A stretch of DNA of 64,000 nt. Source: a virus. Taxonomy: Duplodnaviria > Caudoviricetes. The notes below the pieces were generated by a model. It did not search any database and was not told the DNA's origin. It saw only the letters and a list, made by a program, of their open reading frames with translations. The stretch spans positions 1 to 64,000 of IMG/VR virus record IMGVR_UViG_3300033121_001593, one strand, 5' to 3'. Each line of letters starts with the position of its first letter. Position 1 is the first letter of the stretch. The position numbers were made by a program, and so were the translations under genes. Below, in pieces: positions 3,067 to 32,090 of this stretch.

Positions 3067-3111
3067 CCAACCTTAAATTTTTCGAGATTGGCGAAAAAGG
3101 CCCTTTTTCGC

Positions 3112-3140
3112 TTGACAAACTAAACAGCCTGTAGTAAAAT
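3112..3140 (+). promoter_or_regulatory. sigma70-type phage promoter
   Basis: TTGACA-17-TAAAAT. Confidence 0.8.
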
Positions 3141-3217
3141 GGTCATAGTGAAGTAAGCGTAACCAAACGACCCAAATCGCCGGGGGCCGCCCCCCTACCA
3201 CGAAAGGACCCTCTCAC

Positions 3218-27829: not shown

Positions 27830-28083
27830 CGAAAGCCGAGGCCAAGGCGGCGGCCTCGATAGTCGAATTAGCCGCCGACCTGGCCGAGCTTGGCGAGATC
27901 ACGGCCCTGTATGAGGAGGATCGCCAGGATACGATCCGGCGCTATCAGGCCAAGCTAGACGCCATAGGCGTCGCGGCCGATAAGGCCAGCGACGCCTGGG
28001 CTGACGCCATGGACAGGCGCTGGTCCAACTGGCGCGAGGTCATCACGGCCTCGATCCCGCTAAAGGAGAATGATGAGCTATGA
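27817..28083 (+). CDS. hypothetical protein
   Basis: GAGG RBS. Confidence 0.65.
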   Translation: MARVTKAEAKAAASIVELAADLAELGEITALYEEDRQDTIRRYQAKLDAIGVAADKASDAWADAMDRRWSNWREVITASIPLKENDEL

Positions 28084-28979
28084 AGATCGCATACATCGAG
28101 AAGAACCTGGGGCAGAAGAAGCTGGCCCTGATCGCGATTGCTAACGCAATCATCGCCGACTACGAGCGCCAGGGGTATGACCTGACTCTGCGCCAGCTTT
28201 ACTACCAGATGGTGGCGGCCGGCCATATCCCGAACAACGAGCGCACTTACAAGAACTTGGGCACGGCCATCGATGACGGTCGCATGGTGGGCCTGATCGA
28301 TTGGGAGCGCATCGTAGACCGGACCCGTAACCTGGAGGGCCTGGGCCATTTCGGCAGCCCGGCCGATATCATGCGGGCCGCCGTTTATTCTTACCACGAG
28401 GACAAGTGGGCCGGCCAGGAATATCACCCCGAAGTATGGGTAGAGAAGCAGGCCCTGGCGGGCGTTGTGCAGCGCATCTGCAACCGACTGGACGTTTCCT
28501 TTTTTGCTTGCAGAGGCTACGTGAGCCAGAGCGAAATGTGGGGAGCCGCCCGGCGCTTGATGCGTCACAGAGACGCCGGCCAGCATCCCGTCATCCTCTA
28601 CCTGGGCGACCATGACCCCAGCGGGATCGACATGACGCGCGACGTCGCCGCCCGCCTGAGCCTGTTCGTAGGCGACGAGGTTGAGGTCCGCCGGCTGGCC
28701 CTGAACTGGAGCCAGATCGAGGAGTACAATCCCCCGCCCAACCCCGCCAAGCTATCGGATAGCCGGTCGACGGCCTACATCGAGGCCCATGGTGACGAAA
28801 GCTGGGAACTAGACGCCCTGCCGCCGCAGACGATCAATTCGCTGATCGAGGACGAGCTAAATGACCTGATCGACTTCGACGCCTTCGAGGCCGCCGCCGC
28901 CGCTGAGGCCAAGAACAAGGCCCTGCTGCAGGAGGCCAGCAAACGCTGGCCATCCGTGGCCCGCTTCCTGGAGAAATAG
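28080..28979 (+). CDS. TOPRIM-domain protein (topoisomerase VI-A/DUF2399-like)
   Basis: LTLRQLYYQMV..EVWVEKQAL..YLGDHDPSGIDM..WELDAL. Confidence 0.85.
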   Translation: MKIAYIEKNLGQKKLALIAIANAIIADYERQGYDLTLRQLYYQMVAAGHIPNNERTYKNLGTAIDDGRMVGLIDWERIVDRTRNLEGLGHFGSPADIMRAAVYSYHEDKWAGQEYHPEVWVEKQALAGVVQRICNRLDVSFFACRGYVSQSEMWGAARRLMRHRDAGQHPVILYLGDHDPSGIDMTRDVAARLSLFVGDEVEVRRLALNWSQIEEYNPPPNPAKLSDSRSTAYIEAHGDESWELDALPPQTINSLIEDELNDLIDFDAFEAAAAAEAKNKALLQEASKRWPSVARFLEK

Positions 28980-29050: not shown

Positions 29051-29121
29051 TGGCCATTATACCACAGTCAGGGGCCGAAAAACGAGTTTTGAAAAAAGCT
29101 CAAAATTTAAGGTTCAACCCC

Positions 29122-29150
29122 TTGACAAACTGAACGAATAGGAGTATGAT
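29122..29150 (+). promoter_or_regulatory. sigma70-type promoter driving the large non-coding tract
   Basis: TTGACA-17-TATGAT. Confidence 0.85.
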
Positions 29151-29159
29151 GTTCATAGT

Positions 29160-31540
29160 TAGAAAAAAGAATAGCAGCCGGGACGCAAGACACCGGACCT
29201 GAGGGCCAGAACGGACCCCAGCGAATGCGGAGAGCGAAAGCGAAGCGTCAGCCCGGAGTAAGACCAGAACCGCCCCCCCCCGACTCCTGACCGGTAAGTC
29301 CGCAAGGACGCAACCACCCCGGCATAAGGAAGCTAAGAACGGAAGGGCGGGACTGAAAAAGTTTCGGCCTTATGCTAAGGCCCCCATGAGCGAGCGGCCC
29401 AGACGGGCGGAGGCGCACAACCCTCTCTAGCCTAACGGCGAACGAGGAGGCGAACTCCGACGACGGGAACACACCACTCGCTAGGGAGCTTACAAGGAGC
29501 GGCCCGGAAGAAACGCAGGCGCACTATTCCCCCTAAAGGAAGGCGCAAGACGCGGGCCGGACCAACCCGCCCCTTGAAAGTAACCCCGGACATTATGGGG
29601 GCCTTAGCATAAGGCCGAAGACGACAATAAGCCAGGACTAGCGGGATCGGAAGCAACGAGTACCGGGTGAAGCCGGCTCAGGCGAAGCGGCACCTAGCGA
29701 GGACCGCCCGCCCCGAAAACATGAAAATGGACCGCCACCCGAAACGACATACCGTCAAGGGGATCAGGCGTAGCTAGTCACAGGATTTATCGCCTCTCTG
29801 TTGCCACAAGCGGCGGAAGTAGGATCGGCGAAGGCGGAAACGCCGGCTCGGTCCACAGCCACTGCCTCACGGGGCAGCGTATCCTAGAGATACGGGCAAC
29901 AGAGAGGCGATAAGTCAAGGATCAAAGAACTAAACCGGGCCGCCTGGGCGCTGCTCGGAGGCAAAGTTCGGTAAGCCCAAGCGGGTCGGCTAGCGCCGAA
30001 GCAGGCCGCTTGGTAAGCCAAGAGCGCCGGGGTTGGCAACTCGGCACCGAACACAGCCTCCGTCACCGGCCTACTTGGCTGCAGACAGGCGGCCCGGTTA
30101 CAAAAATTTTTCGGCTTTCTCAGTTACGCCGGACGCTCGTAGACAAGAGGCTCGGCATCGTAAGGCCATGCGAAGTGGCTCCGGCCCCGGAGAGACAAGG
30201 GGCTGGACGTAAGCCGGTAGCTCATCTCAGCCGATCTTAAGCGGGCCGGAAGGCTGGCGACTGATCGGGCACAGGAGCCTGGGCCGGGCACTACCTGGCC
30301 GGCGCAACCGAGAAAGCCGAAGGAATGCAGCGGGTCACTCAGACCTAGATCAGAGCGATAGTGTAGTATGCGACCCATAAGACGGAGGTCGCCGGCCGGC
30401 GAAGGCAAAGCCCGGAACAGGGACGGCCTAGACGGCTGAAGCATAATCAAGGGAAGCCCCCTTGACGGTGCGATGGCAGAAATCGCTCGCTCTGATCTGC
30501 GCCTGAGTAGAGATCGCCCGGCGATGCAAGCTACCCAGTCAGCGCAACGCGCCATGACTGACATTGCTAAACAGCGAGGCGAGCGGGTTGAAAGTGGAGG
30601 CGAAAAGCTCAAGGAAAAGGGCCAGCCGTTGAAATAGACGAGCGCCCTGAGCATCGCCTTCCGCCCGTCACAGCTAACAGGCGCAAAACCGGATGATACG
30701 GGCACGGGTTTGAAACGGCACCCGCCCCTAACGTTCATGGATACAACGGTCGCCGCTGATAAAGTGGGGCCTCGTATCATCCATACCAAACGACCCAGAT
30801 CGCCGGGCGCACGCCCTAGAGACACGAAGGAAGGAGTAAGCCTATGAAACGTTAGCCCTGAAGATTGGTAGCCGCCTCGCCTGTGGGGCCAGCAAGATCG
30901 CCTCACAGGAAGCCCCCGGAAGCCCGCAAGGGTAGAAGCTCTCAGGCCGCAAGGCGACAGACTCCGGCGCAGGCCGGACGGGCTGGGCAGGGTCCATAGA
31001 TAACCGGACCATCGTGAGGCGAGCAAGTCAGCACAGATCATTCGGCCCGGCCGCTGGCGCGGTTGGAAGGTTACAACGTCACGGGGACGGAAAAAACCTG
31101 GCTGGACCGAGCAACTCGACAAGGAGGCAAATCAAGCGCATAATCGACCATCTCAGAGCCGGCCCCGTGTAGGCCGGTAGGCGACACCGCATCTATCACC
31201 GACCGTCGCACGGCCGCGGGGCCTTACAACCGGGATCGGTGACCAGTAGCAGGAAAGGGCACAAGCCAGGTGAACGAACCAGACGCGGGCGGTATGCCCG
31301 CCAAACAACAAGCCGGGCCGCCGGGTATCGACAGGCGGCAGCGGGCGGGGTAGCTGAGGAACACGCTCCGGCCCCCGCCCGCTTTCAAGATTGGCCTCAG
31401 TTCAGAGGCCGCGAGCATGAGCCGAGCGTGAGCGACTCGGCAGGGGCTGGCATCCCCTTAGACCGGCGCGCATAAATGCCTGAAGTGCTGCCGGGTGCAG
31501 CGGTTCAAATCCGACATGCTCGCGGCCTCTGAACCGCGAC
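29160..31540 (+). ncRNA. large multi-module structured non-coding RNA or RNA array (~2.4 kb)
   Basis: No credible ORF; ~12 tandem modules closed by 6-25 bp helices; many GNRA-capped hairpins; purine-rich linkers. Confidence 0.8.
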
Positions 31541-31571
31541 CAATCAATTCAAGAACAGGAGCCTTCTAACT

Positions 31572-31880
31572 ATGCCCGATCTAATGCCCGTTCAGCACGT
31601 CCAGTGCGCCCAAATGGACGAGACGCAGCACTTCGGCGGATACGTCCAGACGGGCCTTTTCGACGAGCGCCGCTGGCCGGAATGCACCTGCCCGAAGTAT
31701 ACCTACACCAAGCCGACGCTCAACTTCGGCGGCCGGATGGTCAAGCCGCCCTGCAAGCATATACTGGCCGCTCAAAATACCGTCTGCCAGTATCATTCAG
31801 CGGAGGACGGGTCGCCCCTTTTCGAGGGCGTATGCCCCCGCTGCGGCGGGCCGGTTGTGCCCGTCACCGTCATGGTCTAG
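31572..31880 (+). CDS. SWIM zinc-finger protein
   Basis: ECTCP..PCKHILAA, plus CPRCGG; AGGAG RBS. Confidence 0.75.
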   Translation: MPDLMPVQHVQCAQMDETQHFGGYVQTGLFDERRWPECTCPKYTYTKPTLNFGGRMVKPPCKHILAAQNTVCQYHSAEDGSPLFEGVCPRCGGPVVPVTVMV

Positions 31881-32003: not shown

Positions 32004-32086
32004 TGGCGGTTGCCTGAGAGGCCGAAAGGGGCCGGCTGTAACCCGGTCAGCGCAAGCTCTCGCAGGTCCGAATCCTGCACCGCCAA
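32004..32086 (+). tRNA. tRNA-Tyr(GTA)
   Basis: TGGCGGT/ACCGCCA acceptor, GCCGG-CTGTAAC-CCGGT, long variable arm; T-loop TCCGAAT. Confidence 0.85.
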
Positions 32087-32090
32087 CTAG

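Follow-up and report, generated by a model that had tools for sequence, protein, structure and literature searches.

The first 64 kb of a 143,318-bp Caudoviricetes genome from IMG/VR (record IMGVR_UViG_3300033121_001593, ~97% complete by estimate), here called the window, contain a tract at positions 29160-31540 that an initial annotation had singled out as a promoter-driven, non-coding structured region outside the known RNA families. That description holds: judged from its sequence and from that of its relatives, the tract is a real promoter-driven, non-coding structured-RNA locus. We divide it into a leader, a small unit (lead-B) and the units M1 to M10. The + strand holds every gene from ~19.8 to 40 kb. 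Upstream of the tract, the gene at 28080-28979 encodes a 299-aa protein with a match to a PHROG annotated as DNA topoisomerase. Downstream, M10 is followed by a SWIM zinc-finger open reading frame (ORF) and, 460 nt after the end of the tract, by a tRNA-Tyr gene at 32004, with nine further tRNA calls, the last by 38.3 kb. A terminator scan from M10 to the SWIM ORF found none. Among the tRNA calls, ARAGORN reports at 36730-36800 a tRNA of undetermined identity with a two-base 'anticodon' (ac), where Rfam places a tRNA at 53 bits.

Promoter, composition and coding status

The tract opens with a phage promoter whose hexamers, TTGACA and TATGAT, stand 17 nt apart at 29122-29150, as first described. 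The genome contains at least eight near-identical copies of the ~100 bp that surround it, and we therefore take this promoter to be real and to feed 2.4 kb that hold no gene. The family has a common layout: an upstream ACGAGTTTTGAAAAA + AAGGTT element, TTGACA, 17 nt, TAAAAT or TATGAT, and a shared transcript start. Its other copies lie at genome positions 101295(-), 102698(-), 109803(-), 114860(-), 118479(+), 121591(+) and 137841(+), and also at window 3110-3145. In the other seven copies, a ribosome-binding site (RBS) and an ATG follow after ~50 nt. The tract promoter is conserved in relatives. The products of the genes behind most promoter copies begin with M-T-T/P... and resemble a paralogous early gene family.

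Base composition sets the tract apart. Thymine makes up 12.5% and adenine 25.6% of positions 29160-31540, against 17.1% and 19.7% for the whole window, and a skew of A over T of 0.25-0.53 is confined to the tract, stopping at both of its borders.

The absence of a credible ORF, claimed from the start, is confirmed over 29151-31545. All six frames are interrupted, and since each contains 6-16 of every stop type, no single stop reassignment opens a frame; the flanking genes use the standard genetic code. The sole long frame, 332 codons on the minus strand (30124-31122), has no match in Pfam and is interrupted in every relative; such a frame is expected because the minus strand is poor in A. Across lineages no ORF of at least 40 codons stays open throughout, and substitutions are spread evenly over codon positions, with no bias towards the third. 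A 36-codon GTG frame at 29667-29777 is open in all lineages.

Table 1 Features of the tract, its surroundings and the RNA-handling genes of the phage. Closing arms are given with the number of positions paired; z compares the predicted fold with dinucleotide shuffles.
Feature	Position	Strand	Closing arms (paired)	z	Description
Phage promoter	29075-29150	+			Upstream A/T element; TTGACA 29122-29127, 17-nt spacer, TATGAT 29145-29150; 11/12 match
Leader A	29151-29261	+			First ~17 nt common to other promoter copies; two lineage variants; fold not significant
Lead-B small unit	29262-29354	+			Motifs CTCCTGACCGG and GGCATAAGGAAGCTAAG flank a GCAA hairpin
M1	29355-29620	+	29363-29387/29595-29619 (25/25)	-6.6	Perfect 25-bp closing helix; this genome only
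M2	29621-29783	+		-1.2	Strongly conserved; weak predicted structure
M3	29784-29916	+	29784-29805/29895-29916 (21/22)	-9.3	22-bp closing helix
M4	29933-30099	+	29933-29946/30086-30099 (14/14)	-4.8	14-bp closing helix and inner 17-bp helix; hairpin with loop GGUUGGCAAC
M5	30110-30321	+	30110-30132/30299-30321 (21/23)	-5.2	23-bp closing helix; best conserved unit, 99.5% / 92.5% identity
M6	30337-30508	+	30337-30358/30487-30508 (19/22)	-5.6	Outer helix 30337-30345/30500-30508 around inner cassette 30346-30499 (12-13-bp helix)
M7	30509-30662	+		-2.6	Conserved; local hairpins
M8	30663-30990	+		-0.5	Conserved; L076 insertion point at 30792
M9 and hairpin 31340-31383	31035-31388	+		-1.8	73-96% identity; moderately conserved
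M10	31389-31545	+	31389-31419/31515-31545 (28/31)	-6.6	31-bp closing helix (28 paired); three or four inner hairpins
SWIM zinc-finger ORF	31572-31880	+			Directly 3' of M10; then tRNA-Tyr (32004-32087) and tRNA/non-coding RNA island to ~38.3 kb
TROVE/Ro60-like gene	genome 95196-96647	-			
RtcB gene	genome 126248-127318	+			
CCA-adding-type nucleotidyltransferase gene	genome 115085-115414	+			

Closing helices and known RNA families

The initial annotation counted about 12 modules and ten closing helices; only six modules are solid. Near-perfect inverted repeats of 14-31 bp bound M1, M3, M4, M5, M6 and M10 and lie far above chance, whereas the four short closures of 7-9 bp (29636/29773, 30520/30651, 30663/30977 and 31043/31312) are at chance level. 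Across the genome, a count of perfect inverted repeats (at least 12 bp, loop of 30-400 nt) gives 24. Six of them, among which are four of the seven longest, fall within the tract, which makes up 1.7% of the genome; the enrichment of long inverted repeats is ~15-fold.

Folding statistics single out the same six units, with z from -4.8 to -9.3 relative to dinucleotide shuffles, against -1.3 to +2.2 for coding controls. The values for M2, M7, M8 and M9 (-0.5 to -2.6) are not significant, nor is that of the leader. As to GNRA-capped hairpins, said to be many, five with a stem of at least 4 bp occur on the + strand against 1.5 +/- 1.1 expected, and one on the - strand: a threefold enrichment on the + strand only, and a modest one. 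That the units are not repeats of each other is mostly true, the exceptions being a ~105-nt duplication inside M1 and the unit 29262-29354, duplicated in one lineage. The interior of M1 (29388-29601) resembles a tandem pair of diverged ~105-nt copies, with direct repeats at 29392/29497 and 29408/29514. Compared in antisense with the remaining phage genome, the tract gives no match above chance, and inspection by eye only revealed no integron attC-like core sites (GTTRRRY) at unit borders.

A covariance scan places no known family in the tract, including GOLLD, ROOL, OLE, RNase P, group I/II introns, tmRNA and ribozymes. At gathering thresholds, Rfam 15 finds only tRNAs in the window, all of them outside the tract; with E-values up to 10, matches on the tract are of chance level (at most 21.7 bits). 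Neither the ROOL model nor the group II intron model RF01998 (group-II-D1D4-1) matches the tract, and the YrlA model RF02553, which describes tRNA-like D/T arms carried by a long stem, finds nothing in 29151-31545. The best YrlA match in the genome scores 21.8 bits against a cut-off of 69 and overlaps tRNA-Trp (35392-35499). With no YrlA match in the tract, the T-loop or Y-RNA flavour earlier attributed to the last module, M10, finds no support. The 7-nt 'T-loop' of M10 varies between TTCAAAT, TACAATT and TAAAAAT. The Y RNA signature UACAGCAA, tried as a separate candidate, is absent.

The phage encodes a TROVE/Ro60-like protein, RtcB and a PolyA_pol/CCA-adding-type nucleotidyltransferase, none adjacent to the tract; by virtue of these genes, it thus appears to invest in RNA handling. 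Bacterial and phage Y RNAs (YrlA), which go with Ro60/Rsr and are 80-130 nt long, resemble our units in that their ends pair into a long stem bearing a multi-arm or loop domain (PMC4201824), and this phage has genes for TROVE/Ro60 and RtcB. Here, however, the Ro60 gene lies 65 kb from the tract, whereas Y RNAs normally adjoin it, and no YrlA-type or Y-like Rfam match was found near the TROVE gene. A few kb downstream of the same gene, a perfect 22-bp hairpin with a 7-nt loop (genome 92274-92324), the second longest inverted repeat genome-wide, borders a ~600-nt stretch without a long ORF.

Relatives, unit turnover and helix maintenance

The locus is known from about five lineages of one narrow clade, in wastewater, sludge and soil assemblies; samples with these phages include SRR26337551, SRR21121630, SRR22000172, ERR712377 and SRR21621034. 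We reached them by two routes. A protein-collection search with the translated spurious minus-strand ORF returned two 'proteins' of 90-93% identity, and the contigs behind them carry the whole locus (L060-L065); this worked because gene callers often call the spurious ORF. The upstream 299-aa protein led to L076/L077, L078 and L079 at 87-89% identity. Relatives of this protein at 64% identity or less have no tract, and in the next-closest (64%) a Dam gene occupies its place.

Wider searches returned nothing. No homologue of the tract was found by BLAST against 50,697 phage records or against whole records of 38 related viruses, nor by nhmmer against 40 loci around homologues of the upstream gene. 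A covariance model of M10 had no match in 36 related virus records. Exact-pattern scans of IMG/VR, JGI metagenomes and GTDB genomes for the conserved core, the M1 arm and both M6 cassettes were equally empty. The tRNA islands of three distant ~140-kb relatives show neither comparable inverted-repeat modules nor a comparable skew.

Within the clade, several units are better conserved than the genes around them. In L060, L062 and L078, identity to M2, M4 and M5 is 97.5-99.5%, against 86.7% for the upstream coding sequence. M2, M5 and part of M8 keep ~92-93% even in the distant L076, while the two flanking coding sequences are at 82% and 71% and tRNA-Tyr at 81%. Over all lineages, M2 retains 93-99% identity, compared to 82-87% for the adjacent coding sequence. 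Parts of the tract are, on these comparisons, under strong purifying selection.

Other units come and go as wholes. At the position of M1, L060 joins the flanks directly and L061-65 carry ~85 nt instead; in L061-65 and L078 its place is held by a second, variant copy of lead-B, in tandem and with a different inner hairpin. L076 has no lead-B. The M6 interior (30346-30499) is unique to the window genome: all four other lineages contain an unrelated ~145-nt cassette with its own 12-bp closing helix (TTCGGGGCCG/CGGCCCCGAA) and several inner hairpins, inside the same conserved outer helix. In L062/L078 the inner hairpin of M3 is exchanged and its base helix kept via a G-C to A-U change; in L076, M3 is lost or replaced and M4 is rebuilt behind a different closing helix of ~22 bp.

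M10 is precisely deleted in L078. Elsewhere it is split at ~31486 by a 1.7-kb IscB element, of which L061 provides the left junction (L061:2993-4496, minus strand of that locus) and L055 the right one (L055:1-265). The element encodes an IscB-type protein of 423 aa (RRXRR + HNH), ahead of which stands a HEARO omega-RNA (105.4 bits with Rfam); the target site of the element may be M10 in the intact form seen in the window.

L076 also carries 460 extra bases after window position 30792 in M8, including L076:7200-7535. Within it lie a helix-closed unit of ~95 nt, the 3' half of a tRNA-like structure, whose T arm (GGTTCGAGTCC) neither ARAGORN nor Rfam calls as a tRNA, a GC-rich hairpin of 9 bp and one more copy of the promoter. 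At the insertion point, window 30785-30807 is similar to the leader transcribed from the promoter copy at 3110. Altogether, turnover occurs among phages at least 90% identical, which suggests accessory, possibly host-specific RNA effectors and not core machinery.

Helices are maintained through part of this divergence. In L076, one pair in the closing helix of M5 has gone from G-C to A-U and two A.C mismatches have become pairs; two more stem changes yield G.U and one breaks a pair. M10 has 49 consensus pairs, with 95.9% of cells paired over four lineages, and in four of its pairs both partners have changed, which happens in none of six slid controls. Compensatory changes are found in the closing helices of M5 and M10, in hairpins of M2, M4, M7 (at 30537:30559 and 30598:30659), M8 and M10, and in the 31340-31383 hairpin, which persists through a register shift and a single change from G-C to A-U. 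The GGUUGGCAAC hairpin of M4 (window 30030-30043) keeps an invariant loop on three covarying stems (GCCGGG/CTCGGC, GCTGAG/CTCAGC and GCGGAG/CTCCGC) and is duplicated in L076 (6436 and 6487); it could be a binding site. Counting double changes at predicted pairs between the window and L076, nine preserve pairing and two break it, compared to 0-2 preserving changes in slid controls.

Readings of the tract and possible roles

We consider it probable that the tract is an array of small structured RNAs that are independent of each other, and that it forms the promoter-proximal, tRNA-free part of a phage RNA island. This reading is favoured over one RNA because units can appear, vanish, be exchanged or be set apart by a promoter with hardly any change in their neighbours. 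A polycistronic library of distinct RNAs was one of two options offered in the initial annotation, and the M1 insert, the M6 swap, the loss or split of M10 and the mid-tract promoter all fit it. The units, ~90-270 nt each, would be read from the + strand off a strong phage promoter of sigma-70 type, with transcription probably running on into the SWIM ORF and the tRNA genes. Some six of them are predicted to form hairpin bouquets on a closing helix of 14-31 bp; M2 and M7-M9 would be conserved and less obviously folded. The array would evolve unit by unit, its helix-delimited cassettes inserted, deleted and exchanged between co-circulating phages.

RNase III processing stalks occur in rRNA operons and in T7 early RNA. 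The tract resembles them in that helices of about two turns form from sequences flanking structured RNA, here on a putative polycistronic transcript; unlike T7 RNase III sites, several of its helices are perfect or nearly so, without typical internal loops. By analogy with these precedents and given the two-turn helices, we propose that the primary transcript is cut by host RNase III at the closing helices into stable RNAs, with the A-rich linkers as possible further cut sites. The low U content may make the products long-lived. Early in infection, the RNAs might then act in trans on RNA-handling proteins of the host or of the phage (Ro60/TROVE, RtcB, the CCA-adding enzyme), either as their partners or as decoys. 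RNase III-like excision and a possible part as decoys, aptamers or scaffolds had already been proposed in the initial annotation.

Several observations weigh against such an array. One large RNA whose peripheral domains vary should likewise show indels bounded by helices; the linkers share no processing signal, and the phage itself encodes no RNase III. With about five lineages, covariation statistics are weak, and the shuffling control for M10, in which 34 of 500 shuffles reach the observed value, is no more than suggestive. Single substitutions in L076 break predicted pairs in 36 cases and keep them in nine, mostly in M8, M9 and the M10 interior. Because pair-breaking substitutions are common there, the fine structure of these parts is unreliable, and much of what the folding model predicts, there especially, is likely wrong or unconstrained. 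In addition, the wobble count, 15 G.U against 20 A.C, shows no strand preference, and on the + strand A.C mismatches outnumber G.U in the window's long helices. With no G.U preference in this test, the assignment to the + strand leans on the promoter, gene orientation, skew and loop types.

The other option of the initial annotation was one giant RNA of ~2.4 kb, with several domains, GOLLD-like in spirit, whose closed peripheral domains could be swapped in the manner of rRNA expansion segments. A single promoter in the window tract and no internal terminator would suit it, as would indels that coincide with helix-closed units, as in large RNAs; minimum free energy folding of the whole tract gives long-range helices such as 29939-29946/31332-31339. 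GOLLD is a precedent, with a variable 5' part and a linker able to hold tRNAs (PMC12286853). The comparative data do not support it, and we consider it unlikely. In L076, a hairpin and a full promoter copy stand mid-tract, three of the nine pairs of the M9 closure 31043/31312 are broken without compensation, and this closure and the proposed pseudoknot partner in M8 (30848-30855) are broken or deleted. Terminal and internal units (M1, M3, M10) are lost with the rest unaltered, and covariation supports none of the long-range helices.

Selfish palindromic DNA elements, MITE- or PATE-like, could also have accumulated behind a promoter in a dispensable region, the helices being terminal inverted repeats with no RNA function. 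Units bounded by inverted repeats are indeed present or absent between near-identical genomes, the newest of them (M1) has a perfect 25-bp repeat of which each arm can form its own 7-bp hairpin, a mobile IscB/HEARO element sits within the tract of relatives, and the wobble test prefers no RNA strand. Several findings weaken this reading and make it unlikely: a second copy of a unit is found neither in this genome nor in IMG/VR or GTDB genomes, the arms of different units are unrelated, and no target-site duplication is seen. Moreover, all units have a common strand-specific A>T skew, their inner hairpins covary, and they are better conserved than neighbouring genes.

We give little credence to a very long structured 5' leader controlling the SWIM gene and the tRNA cluster through pausing, attenuation or RNA stability. 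Everything lies on one strand behind a single promoter, with no terminator from M10 to the SWIM RBS. At 2.4 kb, however, the tract far exceeds known leaders, and the seven other promoter copies have leaders of ~50 nt; M10, next to the RBS, is deleted in L078 and holds the 1.7-kb IscB element in L061. Lastly, a coding tract, whether under an alternative genetic code or made up of small ORFs, was dropped as having almost no chance of being right, one open 36-codon GTG frame standing against stops of all kinds in every frame, standard-code neighbours, no third-position bias and the break of every ORF of at least 40 codons in some lineage.

The proposed array of independent RNAs has counterparts in other phages. 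The small stable RNAs of the T4 tRNA cluster, species 1/rnaC and species 2/rnaD, are structured, ~120-140 nt long, and co-located and co-transcribed with phage tRNAs, in a plastic region invaded by homing and mobile nucleases. Like them, the tract is non-coding, structured and on the same strand as the tRNA genes, with no terminator between, and presumably co-transcribed with these genes. It differs from T4 species 1/2 by many more units in a tRNA-free 2.4-kb block, by closing helices of 14-31 bp, by the lack of sequence similarity and by its documented cassette exchange between relatives. To our knowledge, structured RNAs beside phage tRNA clusters (T4 species 1/2, GOLLD, ROOL) have gone without an assigned function for decades.

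With GOLLD and ROOL, the tract shares its phage-borne nature, its position beside a tRNA island and its high degree of structure (PMC12286853). Those are single RNAs of ~0.6-0.8 kb with deep covariation, whereas the tract shows separate-unit behaviour, a narrow clade and no sequence match. Its kind is therefore already known, that of structured RNAs in phage tRNA islands (T4 species 1/2; GOLLD and ROOL, PMC12286853). What is new is the sequence family, the concentration of very long closing helices and the cassette-like exchange of helix-delimited units among close relatives.

More tentatively, the tract may be a promoter-fed rack of helix-delimited RNA cassettes exchanged between co-infecting phages, an RNA counterpart of accessory-gene hot spots that supplies stand-alone, nuclease-resistant effectors. 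A cassette could for example be a decoy for a host defence or RNA-repair protein, its closing helix serving both as processing site and as swap boundary. The relatives offer natural knock-outs lacking M1, M3 or M10, a swapped M6 interior and an IscB-split M10, which make the function of single units directly testable. If the units are indeed accessory RNA effectors, the counter-defence and host-takeover repertoires of phages would include exchangeable RNA genes that protein-centred annotation has overlooked.

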